A stretch of 64,000 nt of DNA from Clostridia bacterium (lineage in GTDB: Bacteria > Bacillota > Clostridia > TANB77 > RGIG9151): assembly GCA_017934955.1 (NCBI GenBank), contig JAGBIO010000034.1, positions 2,123 to 66,122 of the forward strand, in the 5' to 3' direction. Numbering within the stretch: position 1 is the stretch's first letter; each line of letters opens with the position of its first letter. The notes under the pieces were generated by a model. It was not told where the DNA came from. It searched no databases and saw nothing but the letters and a program-made list of their open reading frames with translations. The translations under genes and the position numbers were made by a program. Of this stretch, positions 4,327 through 64,000 are shown piece after piece.

Positions 4327-4465
4327 CAGGGAACTACAGTAGAGATTACATCAAATGTAGTCTTTATTTTTATGTATATAATATTTTAGCTTGTTTAAAA
4401 ATAGTATCACAATGTTGACGATTGTAATACAATGTATTATAATTAAATTAAAGGGGTTGATTATT

Positions 4466-4684
4466 ATGACTATTTCGGTAAGATTAAGCGATGATGATAC
4501 AAGATTGATAAAAACTTATGCAGAAATGAATAATATGTTATTATCTGATTTGATTAGAATTGCAGTAATCGAGAAAATTGAAGATGAATATGATTTAAAA
4601 TGCTATGAACAAGCTCTTAAAGAGTATAAAGAAAATCCTAAAACTTATACATTAGATGAAGTAAAAAAGGAGTTGGGATTGTAG
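4466..4684 (+). CDS. relB: RelB/DinJ-like ribbon-helix-helix antitoxin.
   Basis: ATG at 4466 follows an AAAGGGG RBS. Small acidic protein with an N-terminal RHH-like strand (TISVRLSDDD). Stop overlaps the toxin start. Confidence 0.6.
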   Translation: MTISVRLSDDDTRLIKTYAEMNNMLLSDLIRIAVIEKIEDEYDLKCYEQALKEYKENPKTYTLDEVKKELGL

Positions 4685-4950
4685 TGAAATATAGAGTAGT
4701 ATTTACAGAAAAATCTAAAAAACAACTTTCAAAATTAGATAGATCAATTTCAGCTTTGATAGTTGGATGGATAGAAAAGAACATCGAAGGTTGTGAAAAT
4801 CCAAGGATATATGGTAAAGGATTATTAGGTAATAGAAGTGGACAATGGAGATATCGTATAGGAGATTATAGAGCGATATGTGAAATAAGGGATGATGAAA
4901 TAATAATTTTGGTTTTGGAAGTAGGTCATAGAAAGCATATATATGAATAG
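4684..4950 (+). CDS. relE: RelE/ParE-family mRNA interferase toxin.
   Basis: 88 aa ending ...YRIGDYRAICEIRDDEIIILVLEVGHRKHIYE, a typical RelE/ParE fold signature. Its 4-nt overlap with the antitoxin gene supports the pairing. Confidence 0.7.
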   Translation: MKYRVVFTEKSKKQLSKLDRSISALIVGWIEKNIEGCENPRIYGKGLLGNRSGQWRYRIGDYRAICEIRDDEIIILVLEVGHRKHIYE

Positions 4951-4984
4951 AAAATAATATAAGAATTAAGTGTTATAAAATGCA

Positions 4985-5033
4985 ACAATTTATTGTGTCC
5001 GTGGAATAGGCAGAGGCGTATAATTAGGACATA
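4985..5033. repeat. Partial type-B REP plus linker.
   Basis: Reads caatttattgtgtccgtggaataggcagaggcgtataattaggaca. Confidence 0.7.
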
Positions 5034-5085
5034 TGTATAAAAAGTTCCTTTTTTACTAATAATAAGGTAAAAAAGGAGCTTTTTT

Positions 5086-10078: not shown

Positions 10079-10177
10079 TTAGGACAGCATGAATGCTGTC
10101 CGTACAGGAAGATAGAGATTGAAATGGATAAAGGTTGCACGATCCTTGTAGGGACACAATTTATTGTGTCCGTTGAG
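10079..10177. repeat. REP pair (type A then type B) lying between the two cgs-like ORFs.
   Basis: Reads aggacagcatgaatgctgtccgtacagg ... gtagggacacaatttattgtgtccgttg. Confidence 0.9.
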
Positions 10178-10199
10178 TATATCTATGTGGAGGATAGAA

Positions 10200-12914
10200 A
10201 TGAGAGATACGAAGAGTATTCTTTGGAGTTATGGAATTTCCGGAGATTTACCGATTGTTTTGATTATTGTTCGAAAATATGAAGATTTGGATGTAATTGA
10301 TGAGTTAATCAAGGCACATGAATATTGGAGATTGAAGGGACTTTTCATTGATTTGGTTGTGATTAGCGATGAGGAAATGAGTTATCATCATCCTTTGTGG
10401 AATAGTATTTTTGATATTATTACTTCGGGGCATTTGATTAATCTACAGAATGTGAGTGGCGGTATTTTTTTGCTGCGGGGAGAGATTTTGTCGAAGGAGG
10501 ATATTTCAAAAATTCGGGAGATTGCGGCGATTGTGGCGGAGAATGGGAAAATTCTTTTGGAGGAAGAGTTGTATGGAGATAATAAGAAGTGCGGTTTTGA
10601 GCAGGAGAGTGTCCCGGAGAAGAAATGTTTGGAGAAGCAAAAGTTGGAGTTTTTTAACGGAATTGGCGGGTTTGATGCAGAGAAAAAAGAATATGTTGTT
10701 TATTTGAATAAACAGCTTTTTCCGTTACTTCCATGGAGCAATGTTTTGGCAAATCCGAATTTCGGAACAATAACGACGGAGTCCGGTGGCGGTTATACGT
10801 GGGCATTGAACAGTCATGAATTTCGTTTGACACCGTGGTTAAACGATAGCGTGAGTGACGGACAGGGAGAGTTTATTGAGATTTTCGATATCGATAAAAA
10901 TCTTTCGTTTTCACCTTATTGGTTGCCATTTCGAAATCCTTTGGAGTATGAAGTGAGATTTGGACTTGGATATACAATTTATACGACGCAGGCAGATGAT
11001 TTGAAGATTACGTTGACGGTGTTTGTGCCTTTGGAAGAGAATGTGAAAATTTCTTTATTGCGAATTGAAAATTTGGCGGATTCTCCGAAACGACTTGCGT
11101 TAAAGTATTATTTGAATCCGGTTTTGGCAGACCATAATCATAAGCGAGAGAATCGGATTGAGAGTTTTTTTGACGGTCATCGATTGACTTTTCGAAATTC
11201 TTTTGAAAAGACATTTATGGCAAATACGGTATATTCGCAGATTTCAGGGAATACAAGTTTCTTTCGAAATCATGAGTTTTATGTCTTGGAAAGTGACTTT
11301 GAAATTGCAGGGAAATCTGGAGCAGAGAAAGTTTGTTTATTGGGCATTTTGGAAGAGGACAGAAAAAACTTTTTGGATGCTTCTACTTGCCGAGAAGAAC
11401 TTAAAAAAGCGGAGGATTTTTATCAAAAAGATATTTTGCGGAGTCAAGTGGATACACCGGATTCGGCGATGAATCTATTGTTAAACAATTTTTTATTGTA
11501 TCAGACGTACAATTGCCGCATTTTAGCGCGAAGTTCTTTTTATCAGTCGGGTGGCGCCATCGGGTTTCGCGATCAGTTGCAGGATGTTCTGCCGTTTGCG
11601 TATTTGAAACCGGAGATTGTGAAGAAGCAGATTTTATTACATGCAAAACATCAGTTTGAGGAAGGCGATGTTCTTCATTGGTGGCATGAAGATTTGATGC
11701 GGGGTACGAGAACACGTTTTTCTGATGATTTGTTATGGTTGGTGTATGTGACGAATGAGTATGTGAATGTGACGCAGGATATGGATTTATTGGATTGCCA
11801 AGTGAATTTTGCGAAGGCACCGTTATTGGATGAGGGCGAGGATGAGCGATATTTGGAGTATTCTTATTCTGAGAATAGTGCGTCGGTTTTTTCGCATTGT
11901 GTGTTGGCGATTGAGAGAAGTTTGAAGTATGGGGAACATGGCTTGGCGTTAATGGGGTCCGGCGATTGGAATGATGGGATGAATGAGGTTGGAAATAAAG
12001 GAAAAGGGGAGAGTGTTTGGCTTTCTTGGTTTTTGTATAAGATCCTTGCGGATTTTTCTCCGATTTGTCGAAGTCGCGGAAGAAATGATTTGGCGGAGCG
12101 ATATTCGAAGGAGGCGGCAATTTTACGTGATAATATTAATAAAAATGCTTGGGATGGAGAATGGTATAAGCGAGCCTTTTTTGATGATGGGACAGCGTTA
12201 GGTTCGATTTCGAATGAAGAGTGTAAAATCGATTCGATTTCGCAGTCTTGGAGTGTGATTTCGGACGCGGGAGAAGAGGAAAAACGTCGAAGGGCGATGA
12301 GTTCGTTAGAACATTATTTGATGGATGATGAAAATGGATTGATTAAGCTGTTGTCGCCGGCGTTTAAGGATTGCGATTTGGAACCGGGATATATTAAGAG
12401 TTATCCAGAGGGAATTCGGGAAAACGGTGGACAGTATACGCATGCGGCAATTTGGGCAGGAATTGCGTTTGCGTTGATGAAGGAAACGGATAAAGCGAAT
12501 AAAGTTTTCGAGATGTTGAATCCGATTAATCATGCGAGAACGGATAGCGAGATGAAGAAGTATAAGGCGGAGCCGTATGTAATTGCGGCGGATGTTTATA
12601 CGAATCCGCTACATGTAGGACGTGGCGGTTGGAGTTGGTACACCGGTGCGGCGTCTTGGATGTATCGATTTGGGGTTGAGTATATTTTGGGATTCCGGAA
12701 AAGGGGAGAACGTGTGATGATGGAGCCTTGCGTGAAGACGGATTGGAGCGATTATGGTTTGACATATCGCTATAAAGATACGGTTTATCATATTCGGGTA
12801 TTCTTGAAAGGGGATAAGAAGAACAAAGTGATTGTGGATCATCATATTCAGGATGGAAATTCCTTTGAGTTGGTGAATGATGGAGAGGAACATTCGATTG
12901 AGGTTTATCGGTAG
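10200..12914 (+). CDS. GH94 glycoside phosphorylase-like catalytic domain, forming the C-terminal portion of the Cgs-like system.
   Basis: ATG at 10200 lies 5 nt after a GGAGGA RBS. Contains LWSYGISGDLPIV and an (alpha/alpha)6-barrel region typical of the cellobiose phosphorylase family. Confidence 0.6.
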   Translation: MRDTKSILWSYGISGDLPIVLIIVRKYEDLDVIDELIKAHEYWRLKGLFIDLVVISDEEMSYHHPLWNSIFDIITSGHLINLQNVSGGIFLLRGEILSKEDISKIREIAAIVAENGKILLEEELYGDNKKCGFEQESVPEKKCLEKQKLEFFNGIGGFDAEKKEYVVYLNKQLFPLLPWSNVLANPNFGTITTESGGGYTWALNSHEFRLTPWLNDSVSDGQGEFIEIFDIDKNLSFSPYWLPFRNPLEYEVRFGLGYTIYTTQADDLKITLTVFVPLEENVKISLLRIENLADSPKRLALKYYLNPVLADHNHKRENRIESFFDGHRLTFRNSFEKTFMANTVYSQISGNTSFFRNHEFYVLESDFEIAGKSGAEKVCLLGILEEDRKNFLDASTCREELKKAEDFYQKDILRSQVDTPDSAMNLLLNNFLLYQTYNCRILARSSFYQSGGAIGFRDQLQDVLPFAYLKPEIVKKQILLHAKHQFEEGDVLHWWHEDLMRGTRTRFSDDLLWLVYVTNEYVNVTQDMDLLDCQVNFAKAPLLDEGEDERYLEYSYSENSASVFSHCVLAIERSLKYGEHGLALMGSGDWNDGMNEVGNKGKGESVWLSWFLYKILADFSPICRSRGRNDLAERYSKEAAILRDNINKNAWDGEWYKRAFFDDGTALGSISNEECKIDSISQSWSVISDAGEEEKRRRAMSSLEHYLMDDENGLIKLLSPAFKDCDLEPGYIKSYPEGIRENGGQYTHAAIWAGIAFALMKETDKANKVFEMLNPINHARTDSEMKKYKAEPYVIAADVYTNPLHVGRGGWSWYTGAASWMYRFGVEYILGFRKRGERVMMEPCVKTDWSDYGLTYRYKDTVYHIRVFLKGDKKNKVIVDHHIQDGNSFELVNDGEEHSIEVYR

Positions 12915-18581: not shown

Positions 18582-21500
18582 ATGAAAAAAGCAGTTATGG
18601 CGATGATTTCATTTGTAGTATTATTCAGCGTAGCGATGGGATATACTTTAACAATCCATGAGGAAAGCAGGGTTGTTACGGAAGAGGTGAGTGAAGGCGA
18701 AACGGTTACGATAGGCTTACCGGATCGTTCGCGAGCTAAATATACGGTAAATCAAGGAAATCCGCTATTAAGGGATTTTGGAAATCGATGTAAATTTATT
18801 ATGCCGGCTGAAAATGTAGAAATTACAATAGAAAAAGTATATGTAATAACTTTTAACAGTAACGGAGGAAATCGGGTAGTTACTAAAAAAATGGTTGCCG
18901 GGGAACCATACGGAACTCTGCCCATACCGAGCAAAAGCGGAAGCACGTTTGCCGGATGGTATAGCGACAGTGGACTTACAACAGAAGTAACAAGTACCGA
19001 TACCGTACCGGCGAGTGACCATACGTTATATGCAAAATGGAATCAAACAGAAGTCTTTACATTTGGGACAAACGGGAACACAACATGGGCAAAGTCCCAA
19101 GGGACAACAGTAAGTATCAGCGGTATAGCTGTAAAATCCGGAACTGCCAAATATCTCTGGAAACAAGGAACCGCAACAGCGGATGAAATCAGTAGTAGCG
19201 GAACAAGTTTTACAAGTGGAGATACAGTTACAAAGTCAGATGGAACAGGAAACAATTGGCGATTAAATGTTTATTGTGAAGACACAAATGAGAATCAATA
19301 TATAGCAGCAAGTGATGTATTTTATTTAGATAATACAGCTCCAACTGTGACATTAGCAAGCAAACAATTCAAAATGTTTCCGGACTTACCATATAGATTG
19401 AGTAACATAACTGAAGAAACGGTAGATGGGGTAAAAACATACACAACAACAAGTACGATACCAATCATTTATTTAGAAACAGGACTAAAGAAAGGAATTA
19501 GCGGAGTTACATTCAGCATTTCTCCGGCACCGAGTGAAGACTTACCGATCAGAATTTATACCAACGAACACACTACTTTGGAAACGTCTATTTTAGGGTC
19601 AGTCCCTGCAGGTAAGTCAAGAGCAACAATAGAAATACCGGAAGGAGACTATACGCAGATTGGCGTAAGGGTCGGATCTGAAGCAGGATTAACTTTTACG
19701 ATGAATCCGCTTGATGTTTTTGCAACGGATAATGATTTGTCGCATCCAACTTATATAAGATTTAATTTAAGCGGAACAGACGCTCATTCCGGAAATATAA
19801 CATATCAAGTAAGCAGCGATAACAAAGCAACTTGGAGTGACGTGAGCGGAACTCAATATACGGCAAAAGAACCTGGAACCTACTACTTTAGAGCCAAAGA
19901 TAAATTAGGAAATATAAGTGAAGCAATAGGTGGTTATACACACACAAGATCCTACAAACTTTACTTCAACAGTAACGGTGGAAGTACTGTAGCAACTCAA
20001 ATAGTAAAAAACGGAGATACTTATGGAACGTTACCAACGCCAACAAAGACAAATTATACATTTGCCGGTTGGTACAAAGAAAGTAGCTTAACCAATCAAG
20101 TAACAAGTAGTACTACAGTAACTGCAACGGGTAACCATACCTTATATGCGAAATGGACGGGAGTAAAATCAAACGTAACGTTAAATAATCAAAGTGCGAC
20201 AACAGCGGGAACAACGAGTGTAACAGCAACGTACGGAAGTGCAATGCCAAGTATAACAAAACCGTCAAAAACCGGTTATACTTTCGGAGGCTACTATACG
20301 GAAACAAACGGAGGAGGAACGCAGTACTACAAAGCAGACGGAAGCAGTGCAAAGAACTGGGATAAGACTGCGGCGACAACGTTATATGCAAAATGGACAG
20401 TCAATACGTATACGGTAACGTTAAATAATCAAAGTGCGACAACGGCGGGAACAACGAGTGTAACAGCAACGTACGGAAGCGCAATGCCAAGTATAACGAA
20501 ACCGGCAAAAACCGGTTATACGTTCGGTGGTTACTATACAGAAACAAACGGAGGAGGAACGCAGTACTATAAGGCAGATGGAAGCAGCGCGAAGAACTGG
20601 GATAAGACTGCAGCAACAACGTTGTATGCAAAATGGACAGCGAATACGTATACGGTAACGTTAAATAATCAAAGTGCGACAACAGCGGGAACAACGAGTG
20701 TAACGGCGACGTACGGAAGTGCAATGCCGAGTATAACGGTACCTACGAAAACCGATTATAGGTTTTTAGGATATTACACCGGAACAAATGGAACTGGTAC
20801 GCAGTATTATACATCAACAGGGACAAGTATAAAAAATTGGGATAAAACAACTGCGACAACACTTTATGCGGCCTGGAAAAGTGTAATTCCAACCTATACG
20901 TATACAGGAACTTCAAGTACCTCCAAAGATGATACATATTGGTATATTTATTTGAAATCCAGTGGTAATTTAACCTTTAGCGAAGCACAGTCAATCGACA
21001 TATTCCTTGTAGGTGGAGGCGGAGGCGGATATAATCAATCTTCTGGAACCGGACGTCGTGGAGGCGGAGGAGGTGGTGGATATACTGCCACACACAAAGG
21101 AATATATGCCGCTAATGGTACTACTTATTCTATAGTAGTTGGAGCCGGTGGTGCAGTGAACTGCAAAGGTGGTACAACATCTGCGTTTGGTAAATCTGTA
21201 AGTGGCGGATATCCTGGAACACACTGTGATAATATTAAAGATGGAGGTGATGGCGGCTCCGGTGGTGGTGCCGGTGCAGATTTTAGAACAAGTTCTAGTT
21301 ATTCCGGTACAGCCGGTGCAAGTAATGGTAACAGTGCAACAAGTGTATCCTATGGTAGTCCTTGGAACGACTATAACTATGGAGGAACAGGTCAGGGATC
21401 TACCACAAGAGCCTTCGGAACAGGTGCACTCTATGCCGGTGGAGGAGGCGGCGGTGGACAAAATCCAAGCTCCGGTGGTGCCGGTGGAGGTGGTGCCGGT

Positions 21501-21859: not shown

Positions 21860-22025
21860 AAGTTACTATTCAGACTCAAATCTATAGAAAAAGTACAAGT
21901 ACTGTAGGGACAGCATTCATGCTGTCCACAGAATAGGCAGAAAAGCAGGACAGCATAAATGCTGTCCCTACAATAAATTGAGAAAAATTTAAGGTCATAT
22001 ATATAGGTAAGTCTGACCTGTAACA
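21860..22025. mobile_element. MITE-like unit: a REP doublet (21903..21972) bracketed by terminal inverted repeats GTTACTATTCAGACT / AGTCTGACCTGTAAC.
   Basis: Both TIRs and both REPs were read directly. The same architecture recurs at 23340..23545 and 32183..32360. Confidence 0.55.
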
Positions 22026-23339: not shown

Positions 23340-23545
23340 TTTTTGTTATTATTCAGACTCAATAGCCTTTAAGTTTCGAACTGAACTATTAAATTCTACC
23401 GAAATAAAGGCGAAAACGCTGTAGGGACACAATTTATTGTGTCCGCGGAATCGTCAGATAGTCGAAATAGGACACAATAAATTGTGTCCCTACAATGATA
23501 ATACAATCATTGAAGAAAGATATAGTCTGAAAAGTAACCTTTTTT
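23340..23545. mobile_element. MITE-like unit: a type-B REP doublet (23419..23493) within GTTATTATTCAGACT ... AGTCTGAAAAGTAAC inverted ends.
   Basis: Read directly. Confidence 0.5.
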
Positions 23546-26051: not shown

Positions 26052-26254
26052 TATAATGATGGTACAAACACCGTAGGGATAGCATTTATGCTGTCCATGA
26101 AGTAGGCAGAAAAGCAGGACAGCATAAATGCTGTCCGTACAATAATTGGTACCATTAATTTGTCAAGAAGGCACAAACACTGTAGGGACACAATTTATTG
26201 TGTCCGCGGAATAGGCAGGTGGTAGAATTAGGACACAATGAATTGTGTCCGTAC
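26052..26254. repeat. REP cluster: two type-A plus two type-B REPs arranged as two inverted pairs.
   Basis: Reads ccgtagggatagcatttatgctgtcca...aggacagcataaatgctgtccgtac ... ctgtagggacacaatttattgtgtccgcggaataggcagg...ggacacaatgaattgtgtccgtac. Confidence 0.9.
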
Positions 26255-30246: not shown

Positions 30247-30672
30247 ATGACAAAAGAAGAAAAGTATACTCATTAGGAAAATTTAGCGAAATATGATTTA
30301 GAGACTGCTGAAGTTATGTTAAAAAGTGGGAGACATATGTATGTTTCTTTTATGTGTCAACGAGCTATTGAAAAACTGGCAAAAGCATTACATGTATTAT
30401 ATTTAGATAAAGAAGCACCAAAAACTCATAATATAGTTACTGTAATGAATTTGGTATTTGAAGGAACAACGGATGATGGTATAAAAAATTCAATAGGTAA
30501 GTATAAAGAATATAAGTCTTTTATGGTTGAATTGCTGACATATTATATTTCTGAAAGATATGTTGAATATAAAAGTAAAATAAATCAAACTTTAAATCAG
30601 CAAGTTTGTAATGAAATAATATCGAAAACAAAGGAGGTATTTACATGGTTACAATCTCTAAAGAACTTTTAA
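30247..30672 (+). pseudogene. HEPN-domain protein gene with an in-frame amber codon at codon 10. The ORF track restarts at 30316.
   Basis: A strong RBS (GGAGG, 7-nt spacer) precedes ATG 30247. The translation reads MTKEEKYTH*ENLAKYDLETAEVML.... The TAG falls where HEPN proteins of this type have a conserved Trp, so the likely change is TGG to TAG. Confidence 0.5.
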
Positions 30673-30971
30673 AGATAATTAATAATTATGTGTTAGAGTT
30701 ATCCAAAGAAATTAATATTAATAAGGTTATATTATTTGGTTCTTATGCAAAGGGAACAAATCATGAAGATAGTGATATAGATTTAGCGATTTTTTCTGAT
30801 GATTTTTCGAACATGGATAGAATAGAAGCACTTAAATTTTTACTATTGAAAGCAAGTGATTTAACAGTTGATTTACAACCACAACCTTTTACATTGGCAG
30901 ATTTAGAAGATGAGGATAATTGGTTGGCTAAAGAAGTTGAGGAGACAGGTATCGAACTAAATGTAGCTTAA
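30645..30971 (+). CDS. Nucleotidyltransferase (MNT-type) partner of the HEPN gene.
   Basis: Carries ILFGSYAKGTNHEDSDIDLAIF. Overlaps the HEPN gene end. Confidence 0.65.
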   Translation: MVTISKELLKIINNYVLELSKEININKVILFGSYAKGTNHEDSDIDLAIFSDDFSNMDRIEALKFLLLKASDLTVDLQPQPFTLADLEDEDNWLAKEVEETGIELNVA

Positions 30972-31148: not shown

Positions 31149-31688
31149 TTATAAGTTTTCATACAATTCAATTCTTGATTGCATTTCAGCATTCATAGAG
31201 AGCTGATTACGAACCATAGACCAGTTTGGGACAGGACGATTATTCCATTTTTTGTAAAGCTCTGTAATTCGCAAATAGAGTAATTTTAGTAAAGCATTTT
31301 CATTTGGAAATGATCCCTTTTTTGTTACTTTTCTGAAACTGGAGTTAACGCTTTCTATTGCGTTGGTTGTATACATTACTTTCCGTACAGCACTACCGTA
31401 ATTAAATAACTGTTCTACGTGATTCCAATTTCTTACCCATACTTCAACAGCCCCGGGATAAGAATTCCATACTTGTTTAAATTTTTCAAATTCAGCCTCT
31501 GCAGCTTTTAAGCTTGGTGCTCCGTATATTTTCTTTAAATGTCCGGTAAACGCTTGATAATCTTTGCTTGGTACGTATTTTATAGAGTTACGGATTAAAT
31601 GTACCATACATCTTTGAACTATAACATTTTTGAATATAGATTTCGCTCCTTCTTCTAATCCGGAAACTCCGTCGCTGGATGTTTTGAT
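31149..31688 (-). pseudogene. IS256-family (Mutator-type) transposase, C-terminal ~178-aa fragment.
   Basis: The conserved C-terminal region reads CMVHLIRNS...YTTNAIESVNSSFRKVTK. The N-terminal two thirds are absent. The upstream part of the annotated ORF is unrelated sequence. Confidence 0.6.
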
Positions 31689-31739
31689 ACTAAATTTTAT
31701 GGATTTAATGAAATTCGTAATGAGAATGATATTGAGAAC

Positions 31740-31982
31740 ATGAGATTTCAAGGGGGCGGTGGTACTGATTTTAATGTGGCAGTAAATGCGTTTTCTCGTA
31801 GAGTAGAAAATAAGATAATTTTTACTGACGGTGAGGCACCTATGCCGGAAAAAGCAATGGATGCAATATGGATAGGATTCGGAGAAGATAAGATTAAACC
31901 TAAAGGTGGTAAAGTAATTACTATTACAAGAAGACAACTAGAACGATTATGTAGATTTCATGATATAGATATGAGTAGATAG
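31740..31982 (+). pseudogene. C-terminal fragment of a vWA-domain protein.
   Basis: GGGGTDFNVAVNAF...IIFTDGEAPMPE resembles the end of vWA_3-type domains. No N-terminal part, and it abuts the IS256 fragment. Confidence 0.3.
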
Positions 31983-32182: not shown

Positions 32183-32360
32183 GTTACAGGTCAGACTCAA
32201 ATTGTTACAAATATATCGGGACGTCGAGGACGCCGTCCCCTACAATGACGGCACAATCATCGTAGGGACAGCATTTATGCTGTCCTGCTTTCTGCCTTTC
32301 CTGTGGACAGCATAAATGCTGTCCCTACACTAGATTGTGCCATTTTTATAAATTTAAGTC
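32183..32360. mobile_element. MITE-like unit: a REP doublet within GTTACAGGTCAGACT ... AGTCTGAACAATAAC ends.
   Basis: The left TIR is the exact reverse complement of the right TIR of the 21860 unit. Confidence 0.5.
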
Positions 32361-34214: not shown

Positions 34215-34254
34215 CAGGAAGCTATAGGACAGCATGAATGCTGTCCGTACAGTA
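34215..34254. repeat. Single type-A REP.
   Basis: Reads aaggcaggaagctataggacagcatgaatgctgtccgtac. Confidence 0.85.
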
Positions 34255-36935: not shown

Positions 36936-36993
36936 CTTCTGTTCTTATTAGTAAAAACGGGCGAGCGATGCTCGCCCCTACTATTATAATTTC

Positions 36994-37518: not shown

Positions 37519-37546
37519 GGACAGCATGAATGCTGTCCGTACAATG
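37519..37546. repeat. Single type-A REP upstream of ispG.
   Basis: Reads ggacagcatgaatgctgtccgtac. Confidence 0.85.
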
Positions 37547-38649: not shown

Positions 38650-38735
38650 AAGGCAGGACAGCATGAATGCTGTCCGTACGGAAGAAATGTGGCACAATCT
38701 TGTAGGAACACAATTTATTGTGTCCATGGAAAAAG
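38650..38735. repeat. REP pair (type A then type B).
   Basis: Reads ggacagcatgaatgctgtccgtacggaag...gtaggaacacaatttattgtgtcca. Confidence 0.9.
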
Positions 38736-39238: not shown

Positions 39239-41233
<1,995 letters not shown>

Positions 41234-41235
41234 GT

Positions 41236-41368
41236 GGACAGCATGAATGCTGTCCGTACGGAAGGGAAGAGGCAGAGTTGCGTGGTGGACACAATAAATT
41301 GTGTCCGTACGGAAGGGAAGAGGCGGAAATGTGATGGACACAATAAATTGTGTCTGTACGGAAGTGAG
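41236..41368. repeat. REP cluster: one type A and two type B, all in the same orientation, with ggaagggaagaggc linkers.
   Basis: Read directly. Confidence 0.9.
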
Positions 41369-42816: not shown

Positions 42817-43103
42817 TTAGGACAGCATGAATGCTGTCCGTACAGAAAGGTAGAGGTATAATGGGACACAATAAATTGTGTCCGTACAGAAAGGTAGAGG
42901 TATAATGGGACAGAATGAAATAGGCAGAAACTGGTGTAGGGACACAATTTATTGTGTCCATGGAAGAGGCAGAAACTAGTGTAGAGGTATAATGGGACAG
43001 CATGAATGCTGTCCGTACGGAAGGGTAGAGGAAAAATCGGCAGAAACCGGTGTAGGGACAGCATTTATGCTGTCCATGAAATAGGCAGAAACTACTGCAG
43101 AGG
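42817..43103. repeat. REP cluster of five or six elements (types A and B) between gatC and gatA.
   Basis: Read directly. Linkers include gaaaggtagaggtataatgg and aataggcagaaac. Confidence 0.9.
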
Positions 43104-44569: not shown

Positions 44570-44690
44570 GAAACGGTATATGGACACAATAAATTGTGCC
44601 CGTACAGGAAAAAAAGGAAAATCAATATATGGACAGAAATAGGCAGAAATGATGTATGGACACAATTTATTGTGTCCCTGAAATAGGCAT
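44570..44690. repeat. REP cluster between gatA and gatB (two type B plus a partial).
   Basis: Reads ggacacaataaattgtgcccgtac ... ggacacaatttattgtgtccctg. Confidence 0.85.
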
Positions 44691-46143: not shown

Positions 46144-46960
46144 GCAGGACAGCATGGATGAGGAAGAAACTTCGAATGGACAGCATGAATGCTGTCCGTA
46201 CAGAAAGAGGCAGAAATTTTATATGAATAGAATGAAAGAAGCAGGAACTTTGTAGGGACAGCATTTATGCTGTCCACATACAAGGAAAAAAATAAAAAAC
46301 AGAGGACCGGAGAAATGGAGTAAAAGTTGAAGTTTAATGGTAGAAAAGTAATTAGAAAGTCCGGGTATAATTATTCGTTTTCAGGTTGTTATTTTATTAC
46401 AATTTGTTCGAAGGAGAAAAAGTTTATTTTTGGCGATATAAAAGAACGAAAAATGTATTTAAATGAAGTTGGGAAACTTACGAAATTAGAAATTCTAAGG
46501 TTAAATAATGAAAAAGATGTAGATGTTGTTAAATTTGTTATCATGCCCAATCATGTGCATTTATTAATTTTCTTAAAAAGTGATGCGAATTGTTTTATAG
46601 AACGTAAAGGGAAAAAATTAGAAGATGTAAGAGTACTTGCGGAGGCACGTATTCCGAAAATAATACAACAATTTAAATCAAGGGTTTCAAGATGTGTTGG
46701 AACAAGCATTTGGCATTCGAGATATCATGATCATATTGTGAGAAATCAGCGGGAATATAAGATGATATATAATTATATAGAGAATAATCCGATGAATTGG
46801 GACAAAGATTGCTATCGATAGGAGGTAGAATGGACAGCATGAATGCTGTCCGTACAGAGGGAAAGAGACAGGAACTTTGAATGGACAGCATGAATGCTGT
46901 CCGTACAGAAGGAAAGAGACAGAAACTTTGAATGGACAGCGTTTATGCTGTCCACAGACA
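46144..46960. mobile_element. REPtron-like block: a REP cluster (46144..46290), the RAYT gene, then a second REP cluster (46822..46960).
   Basis: The gene sits immediately between two sets of inverted type-A REPs of the same family that is dispersed through the window. Confidence 0.7.
46327..46821 (+). CDS. IS200/IS605-like Y1 HuH transposase, interpreted as a REP-associated tyrosine transposase (RAYT).
   Basis: HuH motif reads IMPNHVHLLI. The C-terminal region reads WHSRYHDHIVRNQREYKMIYNYIENNPMNW, with the Tyr and Q/NNP motif of the Y1_Tnp family. 164 aa single ORF with no TnpB. TTG start 6 nt after GGAG. Confidence 0.7.
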   Translation: MKFNGRKVIRKSGYNYSFSGCYFITICSKEKKFIFGDIKERKMYLNEVGKLTKLEILRLNNEKDVDVVKFVIMPNHVHLLIFLKSDANCFIERKGKKLEDVRVLAEARIPKIIQQFKSRVSRCVGTSIWHSRYHDHIVRNQREYKMIYNYIENNPMNWDKDCYR

Positions 46961-48392: not shown

Positions 48393-48394
48393 GG

Positions 48395-48712
48395 AAAAGG
48401 CAGGAATTATGTAGGGTGGACAGCATGAATGCTGTCCGTACGGAAGAAAGAGGCAGGAATTATGTAGGGTGGACAGCATGAATGCTGTCCGTACGGAAGA
48501 AAGAGGCAGGAATTATGTAGGGTGGACAGCATGAATGGTGTCCGTACGGAAGAAAAGCAGAAATTTTGTGGGATGGACAGCATGAATGGTGTCCGTACGG
48601 AAGAAAAGCAGAAATTTTGTGGGATGGACAGCATGAATGGTGTCCGTACGGAAGAAAAGCAGAAATTTTGTGGGATGGACAGCATTTATGCTGTCCGTAG
48701 AAGAGGCAGAAA
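48395..48712. repeat. Tandem array of seven REPs, all in one orientation. Three 50-bp units are followed by three 45-bp units carrying the variant GGACAGCATGAATGGTGTCC, then one more.
   Basis: Identical inter-repeat sequences, so these are REP tandems and not CRISPR. They translate as an artificial mutS N-terminal extension in the ORF track. Confidence 0.9.
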
Positions 48713-51329: not shown

Positions 51330-51332
51330 AAG

Positions 51333-51480
51333 GACAGCATGAATGCTATCCGTACGGAGGGAGAGAGGCTGATGTTAAAATGGACAGCATGAATGCTGTC
51401 CGTACGGAGAGAGAGAGGCTGAAATTGCGATGGACACAATAAATTGTGTCCGTACGGAGAGGGAGAGAGGCTGATGTTAA
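51333..51480. repeat. REP cluster (two type A, one type B, all the same orientation).
   Basis: Read directly. Linker reads ggagRgagagaggctgaWRttRMRat. Confidence 0.9.
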
Positions 51481-51498
51481 AATAGAGGAGGTTGGGTT

Positions 51499-52428: not shown

Positions 52429-52556
52429 TAAAAGAAGGAGATTTAGCAAAACAGAAACGTCCCCGATGAAAAAAAGAAGGAGATTTTCGAAAACAGAAAC
52501 GTCCCCGATGAAAAAAAGAAGGAGATTTTCGAAAATGGAAACGTCCCCGATGAAAA
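52425..52556 (+). repeat. Three tandem copies of a 41-bp unit (GAAGGAGATTTTCGAAAACAGAAACGTCCCCGATGAAAAAAA) starting at the GT2 stop codon.
   Basis: Unit starts at 52425, 52466 and 52507. Not related to the REP family. Confidence 0.85.
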
Positions 52557-52592
52557 AACTTTAGCGAATGTGTTAAAGTTTTTTTTTATTTT
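52552..52592 (+). terminator. Rho-independent terminator.
   Basis: AAAACTTTA-gcgaatgtgt-TAAAGTTTT followed by TTTTTATTTT. Confidence 0.65.
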
Positions 52593-55760: not shown

Positions 55761-56144
55761 ATGATGGAGAGTATTTTTGTTTTAATATTTGGTACTTTTA
55801 TTGGTAGCTTTCTGAATGTATGTATTTATCGAATTCCTAAGGGCGAGACGATTGTATTTGGGCGATCTCATTGTATGAGTTGTCAGAAAGAAATTAAATG
55901 GTATGATTTAATTCCTGTGATAAGCTATTTAATTTTAGGTGGTAAATGCCGATATTGCAAAGAGAAACTCTCTTTGCAATATCCGTGCATTGAACTTATG
56001 AATGGATTAGCTTATTTTGTTTTGTATAGAGTTTTTGGTTTTCAAGTTTTCTTTTTTATTTCTTGTGTGGTGTTTTCGGTGGTGCTTGTTTTTTTGATGA
56101 TACAGGTGAATCGCAGGTGTGAGAAGAAAGGCGGGACAGCATGA
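55761..56144 (+). CDS. pilD: Prepilin peptidase N-terminal Zn-binding domain only. The A24 catalytic domain appears to be missing.
   Basis: Carries CMSCQ...x21...CRYC (DiS_P_DiS domain) and ends after 127 aa. The last 8 codons (...RRCEKKGGTA) run into the first REP of the 56130 cluster. Confidence 0.55.
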   Translation: MMESIFVLIFGTFIGSFLNVCIYRIPKGETIVFGRSHCMSCQKEIKWYDLIPVISYLILGGKCRYCKEKLSLQYPCIELMNGLAYFVLYRVFGFQVFFFISCVVFSVVLVFLMIQVNRRCEKKGGTA

Positions 56145-56340
56145 ATGCTGTCCGTACAGAAAGAGAAATAAGCCGAATAGGGACACAATAAATTGTGTCC
56201 GTACAGAGGGAAAGAGAAATAAGCAAAATAGGGACAGCATGAATGCTGTCCGTACAGAGGGAAAGAGAAATAAGCAAAATAGGGATACAATAAATTGTGT
56301 CCGTACAGAGGGGAAGAGAATACAAGTACGAATGAGAATT
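56130..56340. repeat. REP cluster: four REPs alternating type A and type B, all the same orientation, with agagRgaaagagaaataagc linkers.
   Basis: Read directly. Confidence 0.9.
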
Positions 56341-58679: not shown

Positions 58680-59603
58680 ATGAGAACTCATGTGTTGGTA
58701 GCGATTGGAATTATGGTTTTATTGACGGCTTGCGGTATGCAGAATACACAGGATGATGCGACGAAGCAAGTTGAGGAACTTACGAAGCAGGCGTTTTTAT
58801 TGAATGAGAATAAAAAGGCGTTTATGGCGGAGTTATCGCAGGAATCGATAGAGGATCTTTTCTTTCAGATAAAGGATGAAAACGATAATTTAACTGCTTT
58901 GAGCGAGTTTTATGGTTCGGTTACCGAAGGTTTGACGGATAACGATAAGGGACAAAAGGTGAATTGCTATAAGTTGCCGGTAACGATTACTTTTTCCGGT
59001 AATGAGAGTTTGATTAAGGAGTTCTTGGATGCGTTACAGAAGCTTGATGTTGCTGTGGCGATGAATAAATTTGATGTGACGGAGGAGAACGGCGAGTATC
59101 GTGTTGATTGCTTGATTAGTTTTATCGGAACTTCTGCGAAAGCGGGAGTTGGCGGCAGTTCAAATTCTTTTTCTTTGGTGAAGAAGGATAAGGCGGTGAA
59201 AGAGGAAGAAGAAATTGTTTTACGGGATTTTGATGTGAATTTGACAATTCGACCGAGTAATTCGGATGCAGCGGCGGTTACGCTTTCTACCGAAAGCGGA
59301 AAATCCTTGACAAGAGATGAAAATGAAGAAACGGATGTGAAGGTAAGTTTTTATAAAGAGGAAAGCCAATTTTATTGTCAATATTCGGTTGGAGGACAGA
59401 CGCAAACGGATAAAATCACGGTTGGCGATAAGGTGAAGTTTGATGTTTTGAGTTGTAAGCGGAAATTAGATACGGATCAAATAAAGGTTAATTTGACGAT
59501 AGAGAATCGCTTGGAGAAAGCGGTGAGCGTGATTGTTTATAATGATTTGGACGGACGTGTGAAGATTACGAAGTCGGGAAGTGTTGAGGTGGAGAAAAAA
59601 TGA
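58680..59603 (+). CDS. Lipoprotein of unknown function, pilus-cluster associated.
   Basis: Lipobox LLTAC. Confidence 0.4.
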   Translation: MRTHVLVAIGIMVLLTACGMQNTQDDATKQVEELTKQAFLLNENKKAFMAELSQESIEDLFFQIKDENDNLTALSEFYGSVTEGLTDNDKGQKVNCYKLPVTITFSGNESLIKEFLDALQKLDVAVAMNKFDVTEENGEYRVDCLISFIGTSAKAGVGGSSNSFSLVKKDKAVKEEEEIVLRDFDVNLTIRPSNSDAAAVTLSTESGKSLTRDENEETDVKVSFYKEESQFYCQYSVGGQTQTDKITVGDKVKFDVLSCKRKLDTDQIKVNLTIENRLEKAVSVIVYNDLDGRVKITKSGSVEVEKK

Positions 59604-60406
59604 GGCATTCAGAGCGAGGCTTTACTTTAGTGGAAGTTGTGGCGGCACTGGTATTGCTTGCTATTGTTGGGATTCCGTTGGCGAATGTTTTTATGGATTC
59701 TTTTAAGACTCAGGCAAGAGGACAGAAAAAAACAGAAGTGAATAAGGTGGCACAGTTTGTTGCGGAACAGTTAAAGGATGGAAAGAATTATTATGGAATT
59801 GATAGCTTAGACCTTACGATAGATAGGACGGTAACGAAGAAGAGCGAAGATATTTTATCGGATATCGGGACGTTAACCGAACCGTACGATATTGTGATTG
59901 AGGTTAAAAGTGAAGAGGTGGGACAGGATATCAGTGGAAATACGCCGACGGAGTTTGCGTATACGATTGAAACGGATGGTACGTTGTTTAACATAACGGA
60001 GGGAAGTGCAGAACATTCCGGTTTTTCGATTACTTGCTCGGATTTTATTATTCGAACGAGTGAGGATAACAATCAAGATGCTACTTACGATATTTTAATT
60101 GAGAATATCAGCGATAGTCAGGAGGCGACGTTTCAGATAGATAAGAGAACGCCGTCTGCTTTGAATATTTATACAAAGGGAAAGCAGAAAGTGAATTTAA
60201 AGGGATATCCGGAGAATCGATTGTCGAGAGAATATACTTCTTTTAAGACGTTTCATTTGGGAAAGAAGGACAGTGTTTCCAGTAAGAGTGAGGATTTTTA
60301 TAATGCAACGATTACGGTTACTTCTCGAGTGGATGAGACGATTCGGGCGAGTATGAATACGACTTTTACGATTCAAAGGGAAAAGGAAGAAAGCGGGACA
60401 CAATAA
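59600..60406 (+). CDS. Minor pilin (prepilin-type N-terminal cleavage and methylation domain).
   Basis: Carries ERG/FTLVEVVAALVLLAIVGIPL. Confidence 0.6.
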   Translation: MRHSERGFTLVEVVAALVLLAIVGIPLANVFMDSFKTQARGQKKTEVNKVAQFVAEQLKDGKNYYGIDSLDLTIDRTVTKKSEDILSDIGTLTEPYDIVIEVKSEEVGQDISGNTPTEFAYTIETDGTLFNITEGSAEHSGFSITCSDFIIRTSEDNNQDATYDILIENISDSQEATFQIDKRTPSALNIYTKGKQKVNLKGYPENRLSREYTSFKTFHLGKKDSVSSKSEDFYNATITVTSRVDETIRASMNTTFTIQREKEESGTQ

Positions 60407-60540
60407 ATTGTGTCCGTACGGATAGAGAGTGTGTCCACAGAAAGGGCAGAAAATAGGACAGCATGAATGCTGTCCGTACGGATAGAGAGTGTGTGTAGGG
60501 ACACAATTTATTGTGTCCACAGAAAGGGCAGAAAGCAGGA
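60395..60540. repeat. REP cluster (B, A, B).
   Basis: Reads gggacacaataaattgtgtccgtacggatagagagtgtgtcc... ggacagcatgaatgctgtccgtac ... gtagggacacaatttattgtgtccac. Confidence 0.9.
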
Positions 60541-60568
60541 AAGATAGAATGATGTGGAAGGAGTTTGC

Positions 60569-63121
60569 ATGAAAAGGCAAGAACGTGGATCGATTTTAAC
60601 GAGTGTAATATTGATGGTTCTTGTTATGACACTGATTGGGGTGCCATTACTTGGCATGGTTGTGTATAATTATCGGTTGCGTGAGATGGATAATACGTTA
60701 AGAAGTTCGGAGTATGAAGCGGAAATGGCGATGGATCGAATCTATTTGGTGATTCGTGAGACGGTGATTAATGCGATTGAGTATGCGAAGAGTAATGCGA
60801 CGCAGGCGGTTAATGCGACTTCGGAATTGCAGAGAACGCAGTATGCTGCATTACGTGCGGAATATGAGGATCTTTGGATTAAAGCGAGTGATAATCATAA
60901 TCAAAATATTGCAGAGATGATTCCGGATTTGGGAGTTTCGTCGGAGGAGATAAAAAATCAGTTGAAGAATGCTGCGACTTTGCAGGAGGCAAAAGAAATT
61001 TATTTAAATTATCAGTTAAATCGAAGACTTTCGGAAATTCATGATGGGGAATTGGAATCGGATATTATGAGTCCGTTATATGTCGGTTCGGTGGTGAATT
61101 CGGAAGACGGAATGATTAATGATGCGAATTTAAAACTTGCGTATAATAAGGTCTTTCAATATCATTATCAAGATTATTTTCAAAATACGGTTACATTGCA
61201 GGATGGCACGACGGATGAATTTAGTAATGTACTTAATCAGATTAATAAAGAGGAAAATTATACTTCGATTTCGGCGGATGCCATTGAAATTATTACAGAT
61301 GGAAGTGATGTGACAAAGGATTCTTATTTAAAAATCACGGCTAATTTGACGGATGAAGATCCGTTGGACGATATATTAAACGTTAATGCACGTGTCGATT
61401 TTCGAAGAAATAAGACAACACTTCCTACATATATTTCGTCTACCTTTGTGGTTGGAACGCCGGAATTTGATTCGGTTACCAATATTGAACAGCAGCCGGT
61501 TGCGTTAAGTAACCCGATCACCAATCAGGGAGTTACGGTTGGCGGAACGTTAAATGTAATGAATAATACGCATTTGGAAGTTGCGAATGATATTACGGTG
61601 ACGACATATAATGAGGCTTCGGGAGAAGATGTAGATAATGGTATTGTTTTATATGAGGGCGCTACCTTGATTGCGAAGGAGAACGGAGGTACGAGTGATT
61701 CGAGAATTGCCGTTAATGGGGATGTGGTGATGAAAAACGGATCGGAACTTAGTACGGGAACGAATCCGTTTTATTACAGAAATTTATATGTGGGACAGGC
61801 GAGTGATAGTGAGAGTGCGAAATATACGATTCGCTTTAATGGAAATGTAGTGGCGAAAGATGATTTGGAATTGAATACGGATGGAGAGGTTACGGTTACA
61901 CAAGCTACCGAAGCTAATTATTACGGATTTAACGATATAAACGATGAGGGACCGGATGCGAGCAGTGCTATTGTGGTGAATTCGGATAAATTGGAGAAAA
62001 AGACGTTGCAATTCGGGAATTTATATCTTGCGGGAAGAGCGTTTATTGATGGGGCGGTAAGCGAGAGAAGAAATCTGATACCGGATTCTGCAGGAGATTA
62101 TATTATTAATGAGAATGGAGAGCCTGTGAAGGTTGCTGCGGGAAGTGGTACGCATCGTAATGAGGATATTGTGTATAAAACCGGAGAGAGTATCGCTATT
62201 CGAGGCAATTATTTGGCGTATCAGACACCACTATATGATAATACGACTTATACGGCGGATAAAGTGAAGTATTCTACTTATTTTATTAAGAATAAGTCGG
62301 GGGATTACGGAAAAAGTGAAGTACCGATTCATTTGGCGGATTCCTTTATTAAAGCGGATAATATTTATAATAGTGATGATTACAGTAGCTTTGATACGCA
62401 AAATAAATGGGAATATTTTATGCAGTATGCTTCAGAGTATGCGGATATTTTAAAACGATTAAAGGTGACGGCGACGGTAAAATATATGATTGGAACCGGA
62501 TTTAATGCAAGTAAAAACGTTATTCTTCCTGTTACGCCGACGAATACAGCCTTTAAGGATAATTTGGCGGTGGAGTATGAGAAATATACGCAGTATTTCG
62601 GATATCGTCCGATTGGGGAGGATGGAAAACCGGATACGACAAAGGCAAAGACGCGAATTTTCGGAGAAAACGGCTGGATAAAAACGAATTCCGGTCTTTC
62701 TTCTAAGACGACGGGAGATTATCGACTGATTTATGATATGGATGCAGGAAAAACGACTAAAATTACTTTGGCAGGCAGTAATAATAAAGGCATTATTATT
62801 TGCAGAGGGAATTTAGAGATTACCGTTTCGGATAATGCTACGTTTTCAGGAATGATTGTGGTTGGTGGAAATCTTACCGTTACCGGTGGTGGTACTTTAC
62901 ATTTGGCGGATGCGAAGGAGGAAAATATTAATACCATTATTCAAAATTATTTAGGGAAGAACTCTGAGGAAACGGGAAGTAACGGCGGACTTTATGAGAT
63001 TTTTGAATATGATAATTCCGGTACGACGTATGTTGTGACGGAGGTAAATGATACGTTTATTAACGTGAATGATTTAATCAATATTACAAATTGGAAGAAA
63101 CAGAATGTCGGAAGAGTGTAA
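60569..63121 (+). CDS. Large PilX-like minor pilin or pilus tip-associated protein (851 aa).
   Basis: PilX_N-like N-terminus reads QERGSILTSVILMVLVMTLIG. GGAAGGAG RBS present. Confidence 0.5.
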   Translation: MKRQERGSILTSVILMVLVMTLIGVPLLGMVVYNYRLREMDNTLRSSEYEAEMAMDRIYLVIRETVINAIEYAKSNATQAVNATSELQRTQYAALRAEYEDLWIKASDNHNQNIAEMIPDLGVSSEEIKNQLKNAATLQEAKEIYLNYQLNRRLSEIHDGELESDIMSPLYVGSVVNSEDGMINDANLKLAYNKVFQYHYQDYFQNTVTLQDGTTDEFSNVLNQINKEENYTSISADAIEIITDGSDVTKDSYLKITANLTDEDPLDDILNVNARVDFRRNKTTLPTYISSTFVVGTPEFDSVTNIEQQPVALSNPITNQGVTVGGTLNVMNNTHLEVANDITVTTYNEASGEDVDNGIVLYEGATLIAKENGGTSDSRIAVNGDVVMKNGSELSTGTNPFYYRNLYVGQASDSESAKYTIRFNGNVVAKDDLELNTDGEVTVTQATEANYYGFNDINDEGPDASSAIVVNSDKLEKKTLQFGNLYLAGRAFIDGAVSERRNLIPDSAGDYIINENGEPVKVAAGSGTHRNEDIVYKTGESIAIRGNYLAYQTPLYDNTTYTADKVKYSTYFIKNKSGDYGKSEVPIHLADSFIKADNIYNSDDYSSFDTQNKWEYFMQYASEYADILKRLKVTATVKYMIGTGFNASKNVILPVTPTNTAFKDNLAVEYEKYTQYFGYRPIGEDGKPDTTKAKTRIFGENGWIKTNSGLSSKTTGDYRLIYDMDAGKTTKITLAGSNNKGIIICRGNLEITVSDNATFSGMIVVGGNLTVTGGGTLHLADAKEENINTIIQNYLGKNSEETGSNGGLYEIFEYDNSGTTYVVTEVNDTFINVNDLINITNWKKQNVGRV

Positions 63122-63857: not shown

Positions 63858-64000
63858 ATAGAATTAGGACACAATTTATTGTGTCCACAGAAAAGGCAGA
63901 AAGCAGGACAGCATGAATGCTGTCCGTACAAATCGCGTTTTATCGATATTTTTTGAATTGTAGCTATAGAAGGCAGGAACACTGTAGGGACAGCATTTAT
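63858..64000. repeat. REP cluster (B, A, then a partial A at the window edge).
   Basis: Read directly. Confidence 0.85.

Follow-up and report, generated by a model that had tools for sequence, protein, structure and literature searches.

A probable REP/RAYT system with dense, polarised palindromes in an uncultured Clostridia bacterium of the ruminant gut

The transposase-like gene and its palindromes

The window analysed here is a 64 kb stretch of ordinary chromosome from an uncultured, low-GC, spore-forming Clostridia bacterium found in a ruminant gut metagenome. Between gatB and miaB it contains an open reading frame (ORF) of 164 aa (46327-46821, + strand; TTG start with GGAG 6 nt upstream), and both sides of this ORF are occupied by repetitive extragenic palindromes (REPs), the nearest of which are no more than 71 nt away on the upstream side and 11 nt on the downstream side. 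This arrangement is termed a REPtron. Together with a dispersed population of REPs that resembles bacterial interspersed mosaic elements (BIMEs), it very probably constitutes a REP/RAYT system in a Clostridia bacterium, the encoded protein being a class-2 TnpAY1 (TnpAREP, or REP-associated tyrosine transposase, RAYT). An earlier note, written from the letters of the window alone, had described a single-ORF Y1 HUH gene of 164 aa without a TnpB and with REPs on both sides, and this description is confirmed. It had also called the gene the only intact one of its kind, and indeed the single other transposase-like sequence in the window is a truncated IS256/Mutator-family fragment (31152-31937, - strand; profile positions 231-377 of 379 matched), which has a REP doublet about 330 nt upstream.

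The HUH motif of the protein is H76-V77-H78 and its catalytic tyrosine is Y150, contained in Y150-I-E-N-N-P155. The profile search that the earlier note proposed gives a match to Pfam PF01797 (Y1_Tnp, 'Transposase IS200 like') with 30.9 bits against a cutoff of 23, a profile that does not discriminate RAYT from IS200. The score is 64 bits on the NCBIfam model for REP_Tyr_transpos (NF047646) and 18 bits, against a cutoff of 55, on that for IS200 (NF033573). The best sequence match in the Protein Data Bank (PDB) is 4ER8, the Escherichia coli TnpAREP bound to REP, and in this alignment W129, D135, H136, R139, Y150 and N154 fall on W94, E100, H101, R104, Y115 and N119, so that all of these positions are kept except E100, which is replaced by Asp. 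Among 42 aligned homologs, M73-P-N-H76, R139, Y150, I151 and N154 are invariant, and H78, W129, D135, H136 and P155 are found in at least 90% of the sequences. An AlphaFold (AF2) model of the protein has a mean predicted local distance difference test (pLDDT) score of 81, and its top Foldseek match in the PDB is 4er8_A (E 8e-7, template modelling (TM) score 0.56), with the TnpA proteins of ISDra2 and IS608 close behind.

According to Quentin et al. 2018 (PMC6006769, Table 1), a Y---NP motif defines class 2 TnpAY1 proteins (TnpAREP-like) and Y---Q defines IS200. Subclass 2.4, which corresponds to group 4 of Bertels, has the signature NH[IFV]H with YIxNNP (PMC6006769). The NHVH and YIENNP of the window protein fit this signature, while the WQ of the family consensus is replaced by WH, as it is in a homolog with 53% identity (P0003). 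Judged by motif only, the protein appears closest to subclass 2.4 or Bertels group 4.

The REPs are 20 nt long and of two types, type A being GGACAGCAT-NN-ATGCTGTCC and type B being GGACACAAT-NN-ATTGTGTCC. The window has 36 matches to type A (GGACAGCATNNATGCTGTCC, up to 2 mismatches) and 18 to type B (GGACACAATNNATTGTGTCC, up to 2 mismatches), where dinucleotide shuffles give chance expectations of 0.00 and 0.01, respectively. When up to 3 mismatches are allowed there are 55 REPs in total, and a 56th beginning at 63988 is cut by the window end, which bears out the earlier estimate of two palindrome types at about one per kb and about 60 in 64 kb. The window has 64 perfect palindromes whose stems reach 8 bp or more, and 46 of them are these REPs. 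The two types differ at two stem positions, and both differences are compensated in the opposite arm. As single-stranded DNA (ssDNA), one REP folds into a hairpin of 8-9 bp (-7.4 to -8.5 kcal/mol, z -4.9 to -6.2) and a REP doublet into a long hairpin of -23 kcal/mol. The REPs are gathered in 21 clusters which cover 2,192 nt, or 3.4% of the window, at a density of about 0.85 REPs per kb; of the 7.4 kb of intergenic DNA they take up about 30%. No Rfam family was matched in the window at gathering thresholds. A literature search for the exact REP sequence returned only unrelated human primers, and the sequence is not in the supplements of PMC6006769 and PMC3733652.

Arrangement, placement and polarity of the repeats

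The REP clusters of the window are as follows:

3297-3316, + strand: single type A REP with GTAG foot
4139-4290: four type A REPs, an 82-nt doublet unit present twice
4981-5000: degenerate type B REP with 3 mismatches
10082-10171: feet-inward doublet of A and B, between two GH94-type ORFs
21908-21967: feet-outward type A doublet (GTAG...CTAC) with linker acagaataggcagaaaagca
23425-23489: feet-outward type B doublet
26077-26250: an A-A and a B-B doublet, both feet-outward, in a divergent intergenic region
32266-32324: feet-outward type A doublet with the linker inverted, beside the truncated IS256 transposase
34227-34246, - strand: single hairpin-GTAC REP, past ychF
37519-37538, - strand: single hairpin-GTAC REP, upstream of ispG (GcpE)
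38656-38725: feet-inward doublet of A and B
41236-41355, - strand: three hairpin-GTAC REPs in tandem (A, B, B), beginning at the TAG stop of ligA
42820-43075: five REPs in the gatC-gatA spacer
44582-44677: two type B REPs in the gatA-gatB spacer
46147-46275: upstream REPtron arm, with a half-REP at 46147, a hairpin-GTAC REP at 46178-46197 and a GTAG-hairpin REP at 46256-46275, feet inward with a 58-nt linker
46832-46953: downstream REPtron arm, three tandem type A REPs (46832, 46883, 46934) with a period of 51, two having a 3' GTAC and the last being footless with a TT loop
48418-48696, - strand: tandem array of 6 type A REPs in the miaB-mutS spacer, period 51-53, 5.9 copies
51332-51451, - strand: tandem run of 3 REPs past mutS, the stop of mutS lying within a GTAG foot
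56134-56302, - strand: tandem run of 4 REPs alternating between A and B, a 102-nt unit in 1.9 copies
60396-60518: three REPs (B, A, B)
63867-63925: feet-outward doublet of B and A, followed by the REP from 63988 that is cut by the window end

The orientation of each REP was read from its loop and from the tetranucleotide foot beside the hairpin. On the + strand of the window, 14 REPs read GTAG-hairpin, mostly with a TT loop, 33 read hairpin-GTAC (loop GA for type A, AA for type B), 3 read hairpin-CTAC, and 4-5 are footless. The 5' foot GT[AG]G is thus present, as GTAG, on 17 of the 55 REPs (14 on the + strand and 3 on the - strand), while in 33 of the 55 the foot is GTAC, which deviates from it at position 4. 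The earlier note had the palindromes preceded by GTAG or GTAC; this holds for the 14 GTAG feet but not for GTAC, which stands 3' of the palindrome on the + strand in 33 of 33 cases.

The clustering is BIME-like, with pairs of both kinds and tandem runs distributed over the 21 clusters. There are nine feet-inward pairs (hairpin-GTAC, a linker of 23-58 nt, GTAG-hairpin) and six feet-outward ones, independent of these, in which some 20-25 nt separate GTAG-hairpin from hairpin-GTAC or hairpin-CTAC. Tandem runs in one orientation, repeating every 49-53 nt with up to 5.9 units (48394-48699 with 5.9 copies, 41233-41364, 46828-46953, 51332-51483 and 56133-56320), take in about 23 REPs, and four REPs are singletons. 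The tandem arrays have the form (hairpin-GTAC + ~31-nt linker)n, usually closed by one GTAG REP with a TT loop. The claim that the REPs usually form inverted doublets is therefore right for about 30 of the 55 and leaves out the 23 or so in tandem runs, and the strict organisation of REPINs (REP doublets forming hairpins) fits only part of the population. Di Nocera et al. 2013 record all of these forms among GTAG REPs, namely singletons, dimers of both kinds and tandem reiteration. The linker motif TAGGCAGAAA is enriched in the window (17 occurrences with up to 1 mismatch, against 4 expected). The AGGCAG that had been called invariant in the linker is not so, as only 16 of the 55 REPs have an exact copy in the 40 nt downstream of them, and 36 have one with up to 1 mismatch.

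None of the 55 REPs is inside a gene body, the only overlaps being with mechanically extended ORF starts or with the last few codons of a gene. They occupy 20 of the 52 intergenic spacers, including both spacers within the gatCAB operon, and sit at or directly past stop codons. The stops of ligA and mutS lie within GTAG-like feet, the TGA that ends ORF 55761-56144 falls in the loop of a REP, the first in an array of four units, and ORF 59600-60406 ends in a TAA within a REP loop. Of the genes with a REP directly after them, 9 of 13 stop at TAG, compared to 9 of 33 other genes (Fisher p = 0.017). In the window no T-run follows the REP hairpins, which indicates that they are not intrinsic terminators. 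The earlier note placed REPs inside operons, in tandem arrays and after truncated genes, and instances of each are present in the gatCAB spacers, in the runs of up to 5.9 units and in the apparently truncated prepilin peptidase ORF that ends in a REP. This last ORF (55761-56144, 127 aa) has an A24_N domain only and looks truncated. Two very large GH94-type ORFs (5086-10077, 1663 aa, and 10164-12914, 916 aa) are separated solely by a REP doublet, and the first of them stops just past the supersandwich domain, without a catalytic domain; the pair may be one gene split or truncated by REP insertion.

In public gene calls of this organism, REP arrays are annotated as short protein-coding genes of 30-76 aa with motifs such as GQHECCPY and DSMNAVRTEGKR (for example at 4917-5048, 6666-6758, 12039-12155 and 19903-20133 of a second assembly of the contig, L001; proteins P0121-P0127). 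These short proteins are spurious ORFs.

The GC skew, (G-C)/(G+C), ranges from +0.13 to +0.46 across the entire window with a mean of 0.35, and is uniform and exceptionally strong. The + strand is G-rich throughout and is thus the leading-strand sequence and the lagging-strand template. Nearly all window genes are carried on this G-rich strand, because of which a polarity set by replication is inseparable in the window from one set by transcription. Over three regions (the window and two further contigs described below), the REPs with a GTAC foot read hairpin-GTAC on the G-rich strand in 46 cases against 0 (p ~3e-14), and GTAG-hairpin outnumbers hairpin-CTAC on the same strand by 25 to 9 (p = 0.009). 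IS608-type enzymes act on the lagging-strand template.

Inheritance of the gene and gain of the repeats

A tblastn search with the RAYT found one copy in the window and none in two further REP-bearing contigs (L217 and L218), which together amount to about 99 kb with 84 REPs. The exact protein is present in 4 assemblies, in a single genomic context. Two related loci share parts of this context: in L088 the order is MGDG synthase-gatC-gatA-gatB-RAYT with a RAYT of 75% identity, and in L089 it is RAYT-miaB-mutS-GT2 with a RAYT of 60% identity, the flanking proteins in both being 85-91% identical to those of the window. REPs also flank both orthologs. Measured against L088 and L089, the RAYT has a dN/dS of 0.21 and 0.13, respectively, and the neighbouring genes have 0.05-0.06; these values are rough, because dS approaches or exceeds 1. 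From these comparisons the RAYT appears to be no longer mobile and to be vertically inherited at the gatB-miaB locus under purifying selection, which is the pattern of a domesticated transposase reported by Bertels et al. 2017 (PMC5581495). The RAYT of L089 (1-240) has no start codon left, and its first ~30 codons are interrupted by indels and stops; the called product is 144 aa. The REPs of L089 are mostly GGTCAGCAT..ATGCTGACC, with a compensated change at stem position 3, and the gene may be decaying there while the stem-changed REPs persist.

In L088, the same type A hairpin lies 3 nt past the RAYT stop and a feet-inward pair lies upstream of the MGDG synthase gene. The spacers of the gatCAB operon are REP-free in this relative: the gatC-gatA spacer, with 5 REPs in the window, is 29 nt long in L088 (1538-1566), and the gatA-gatB spacer, with 2 REPs in the window, is 14 nt long (2995-3008). 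The miaB-mutS spacer has 6 REPs in the window compared to 1 in L089. REPs have thus been gained in a lineage-specific manner. At three stops (gatC, gatB and mutS), a TAG with a REP after it in the window corresponds to a TAA in the relative. The REP-free gatC-gatA spacer of L088 already contains ATAGGCAGAAA, and this sequence may be a preferred target instead of part of the element. Candidate insertion sites may be (A/G)TAG or positions adjacent to ATAGGCAG.

Outside REP arrays, the second assembly of the contig (L001) does not differ from the window as far as 51475 and matches it at 99.65% past that point, with 17 mismatches and one gap over the last 5.4 kb. It is longer by 58 nt in the array at ~48540 (48537-48580) and by 50 nt in the array at ~51400 (51332-51475), differences that could be real copy-number variation or an effect of short-read assembly. 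The description of the REPs as an actively proliferating family has these array-length differences and the REP-free orthologous spacers of the relative in its favour, and to that extent it may hold.

The palindromes are not confined to the window, a possibility that the earlier note had raised against itself. The two further contigs were found by a protein database search with the spurious ORF of a REP array. L217 (scaffold_1380, from the same sample, covering a mreBCD-minC-fmt region) has 18 REPs in 20.1 kb and L218 (from another sample, covering a pfk-ruvB region) has 12 in 14.9 kb, or 0.8-0.9 REPs per kb. Both contigs have both REP types, a GC content of 40-41%, strong GC skew and no RAYT, and they belong to the same organism or a close relative. 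The GC skew in related loci (L217, L088, L089) is 0.31-0.44.

The hairpin also occurs well outside this lineage. The exact type A palindrome is found in many other genomes, among them at least 12 Chloroflexota/Anaerolineae metagenome-assembled genomes (MAGs), a Muribaculum MAG, a Bacteroidetes MAG and the high-GC Clostridiales RUG103 and RUG311; chance alone would give about 9 matches in 596 Gb (596e9/4^18). In the scan of genome contigs, 79 of the 93 type A matches listed (L002-L087) have a GTAG foot. Among the matches listed in environmental metagenome contigs (L097-L216), type B with GTAG is common, often in a double-foot form, GTAG...CTAC, which is a perfect 28-nt palindrome (GTAGGGACACAATATATTGTGTCCCTAC); none of the contigs listed is of the window's lineage and none also has type A. 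The REPtrons of RAYTs with 29-44% identity to that of the window share the stem design GTAG-GG..(G/A)CAT-NN-ATG(C/T)..CC, as in L082 (GGACGCCAT and GGACAGCAT), L085 (GGGCGGCAT, GGACAGCAT and GGGACGCAT) and L093 (GGAACGCAT and GGAACGGAT). The base (GG) and apex (CAT-NN-ATG) of the stem appear to be conserved in the RAYT subclass and the middle to be variable, and the shared GG...CAT-NN-ATG...CC design partly explains the recurrence of stems across phyla. No obvious GTAG hairpins lie near P0015 (a RAYT with 42% identity, GC 30%) or P0085, so that not every close homolog has a detectable REPtron. Carriage by phage was considered for the cross-phylum spread and dropped, as only 2 IMG/VR contigs carry the sequence.

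The window itself also has a lone hairpin of a different kind, GTAG-tagged GGGCGAGCGATGCTCGCCC followed by CTAC at 36959-36977, which resembles the REPs of other RAYT lineages. A 42-nt tandem repeat at 52430-52558 (3.1 copies, 94% matches), in the spacer preceding a T2SSF gene, is unrelated to the REPs. Genes of the window include comEC, spoIVB, aspS, dapA, ychF, ispG, ligA, gatCAB, miaB, mutS and type IV pilus genes. There are three toxin-antitoxin-like pairs, two of the nucleotidyltransferase/HEPN (MNT-HepT) type at 2600-3248 and 30316-30971 and one DUF6290/ParE pair at 4391-4950, and an 855-aa ORF (60554-63121) encodes a protein without a database record.

Comparison with known systems and alternative readings

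The E. coli REPtron (TnpAREP, 4ER8, with Y/Z REPs and BIMEs; PMC3333891, PMC3479197; subclass 2.2) is like that of the window in having one copy of an HUH/Y1 gene with its own REPs on either side, a 5' GTAG foot, and extragenic REPs of mixed sub-types in inverted pairs and tandem clusters. It differs in that the two proteins have only ~18% identity, with NHVH/YIENNP in the window and DHLH/YIHYNP in E. coli, and in that the hairpins of the window have a perfect 9-bp stem with a 2-nt loop and no bulge or mismatch, whereas E. coli TnpAREP requires a stem mismatch (PMC3333891). In the window, moreover, the GTAC foot is dominant, same-orientation tandem runs are common and the host belongs to the Clostridia. 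Subclass 2.4 (PMC6006769), or RAYT group 4 (PMC5581495), shares with the window the NH[IFV]H and YIxNNP motifs, a variable insert separating HUH from Y, a patchy occurrence among phyla and GT[AG]G REPs beside the gene. In-frame REPs inside the RAYT gene are a peculiarity of this subclass (PMC6006769), and homologs of the window protein (L090 with 41% identity, L093 with 44%, and L085) carry GTAG hairpins inside their own reading frame; the double-foot type B form in metagenomes is a further likeness. The window RAYT departs from the subclass in its WH, its length of 164 aa (median 194), its short rather than 'long' hairpins, and the lack of a REP inside the gene. Group 4 has a weak repeat association in Bertels et al. 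2017 (PMC5581495), with a median of 14 occurrences of the flanking 16-mer, unlike the very high REP density of the window.

The Pseudomonas REPIN-RAYT systems (PMC3116915; groups 2/3, subclass 2.5) also combine a vertically inherited, single-copy RAYT under purifying selection with high-copy short GTAG hairpins, partly in inverted doublets that form a long hairpin. There the RAYT is of another subclass, and in the window inverted doublets take in only some half of the REPs, many forming direct tandem runs. With the IS200/IS605 TnpA proteins (IS608, ISDra2) the window shares the HUH/Y1 fold, a presumed ssDNA hairpin-guided chemistry and the lagging-template bias of GTAG-hairpin, but its RAYT has Y---NP rather than Y---Q, no TnpB and no private ends, and is immobile and single-copy. 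Systems of the REPtron, BIME or REPIN kind are well known, and what is unusual here is the density, the dominant GTAC foot with its absolute polarity, and the direct tandem arrays. The remark in the earlier note that REP/RAYT systems are well described in Proteobacteria and far less so in Clostridia agrees with the surveys consulted, which list GTAG REPs for Proteobacteria, Cyanobacteria, Chloroflexi and PVC (Planctomycetes, Verrucomicrobia and Chlamydiae) and name none for Firmicutes/Clostridia. Group 4 or subclass 2.4 is common in Cyanobacteria, Chlorobia, Caldilineae, Bacteroidetes 'and various phyla', and for Clostridia only group 1 (without REPs) and IS200 are mentioned (PMC6006769, PMC5581495). 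No paper on REP/RAYT in Clostridia was found, within incomplete literature coverage.

By homology with E. coli TnpAREP and IS608 TnpA, the RAYT would bind the ssDNA REP hairpin via the 5' GTAG foot and the stem, the predicted substrate being GTAG + GGACAGCATTTATGCTGTCC. H76 and H78 would hold a divalent metal, and Y150 would cut nearby DNA, in an inverted REP or the linker, via a 5'-phosphotyrosine link and rejoin the strands. In this way the non-coding REPs may have been moved or locally amplified in trans by the RAYT; in this lineage they have expanded to their present density, at or after stop codons and also within operons such as gatCAB. The E. coli enzyme binds a GTAG-REP and makes its cut between C and T, CC/TAC being among the sites (the slash marking the cut), in a linker or inverted REP close by, and Ton-Hoang et al. 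proposed a cleavage-and-priming model which adds tandem units (PMC3333891). Arrays of the form (inverted REP + linker)n followed by one REP agree with that model.

Several points weigh against assigning the locus to a REP/RAYT system of this type. The protein is below the equivalog cutoff of the NCBIfam REP_Tyr_transpos model (64 vs 80 bits), the position of Q95, one of the GTAG-reading residues in E. coli TnpAREP, is His in this RAYT, and the fold search separates TnpAREP from IS608 TnpA poorly (TM 0.56 vs 0.52). Most of the REPs have GTAC rather than GT[AG]G, and the CC-GTAC junction lacks the C-T step, if this is needed as in E. coli. The single-copy status of the gene and the total number of REPs are extrapolated from ~99 kb to the whole genome, and L217 and L218 were ascertained through a REP array, which is a source of bias; each also holds 5-7 further separate clusters. 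The literature consulted contains no biochemistry for any enzyme of subclass 2.4.

It is unlikely, in our judgement, that the repeats are mainly regulatory elements selected by the host, such as mRNA 3'-end stabilisers, operon attenuators or gyrase/IHF-like sites, and that the RAYT is incidental or has another role, although such a function would be compatible with an origin by RAYT-driven spread. Roles of this sort are documented for E. coli REPs (PMC6006769), and they would suit the absolute polarity of hairpin-GTAC to gene and leading strand (46 vs 0), the placement of REPs at or after stops with its excess of TAG, and the REPs within the gatCAB operon. The lack of a T-run after the hairpin and of any Rfam match speaks against them, as do the orthologous spacers of the close relative, which work without REPs. 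Arrays of up to 6 near-identical units and copy differences between assemblies resemble amplification rather than designed regulation, and the polarity, shared in the window by transcription and replication, is not distinctive of either.

There is very little likelihood that the ORF represents the TnpA of an insertion sequence (IS) from the IS200/IS605 family and that the palindromes are its subterminal hairpins together with gene-less derivatives like palindrome-associated or miniature inverted-repeat transposable elements (PATEs or MITEs). The HUH/Y1 fold is the same, IS608 and ISDra2 TnpA are strong structural matches, the Pfam domain is named for IS200, and the feet-outward doublets (GTAG-hairpin ... 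hairpin-GTAC/CTAC) resemble left and right ends without cargo. Yet the protein has YIENNP in place of Y[IV]ENQ, scores 18 bits against the NCBIfam IS200 cutoff of 55 and has no TnpB, and it occupies the same chromosomal locus in lineages separated by a dS of ~0.7 or more, with one copy among 84 REPs in ~99 kb and one context across 4 assemblies. The earlier note had named a canonical IS200/IS605 element as the finding that would overturn it; the YIENNP motif, the absence of TnpB and of ends beyond the REPs, and the fixed gatB-miaB locus in two diverged relatives show that this is not one. We give almost no credence to the reading of the tandem arrays, with their 20-nt palindrome and ~31-nt spacer, as degenerate CRISPR arrays or assembly artefacts. 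The sizes of repeat and spacer are superficially CRISPR-like and array length varies between assemblies, but the 'spacers' are 80-95% identical between units, no cas genes are found among the ORFs scanned or called, the same units also stand singly and as inverted pairs, at 21 sites, and the same REPs recur in independent assemblies from other samples.

Within the REP/RAYT reading, a further and doubtful proposal is that the hairpin is a conserved recognition module of one RAYT subclass, and that the Clostridia lineage evolved a GTAC foot which removes the C-T step, so that units would be added but not excised. The relevance of this loss is speculation. If the proposal were true, the GTAC-foot variant would account for the 46:0 polarity, the (hairpin-GTAC)n-REP arrays and the extreme density, and the lineage would exemplify, in nature, a one-way build-up of REPs coupled to the lagging-strand template.

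Nearly all work on REP/RAYT systems has dealt with Proteobacteria. On the practical side, the REP arrays are miscalled as short genes, and they break or vary between short-read assemblies. A specialist is unlikely to be surprised by the system itself. The lineage joins dense REPs, relatives with empty orthologous sites, intact and decaying RAYT genes at one locus, absolute polarity and strong GC skew, and it is a convenient natural system and useful test bed for REP insertion, for amplification, for strand choice and for the part of replication versus transcription in setting REP orientation.

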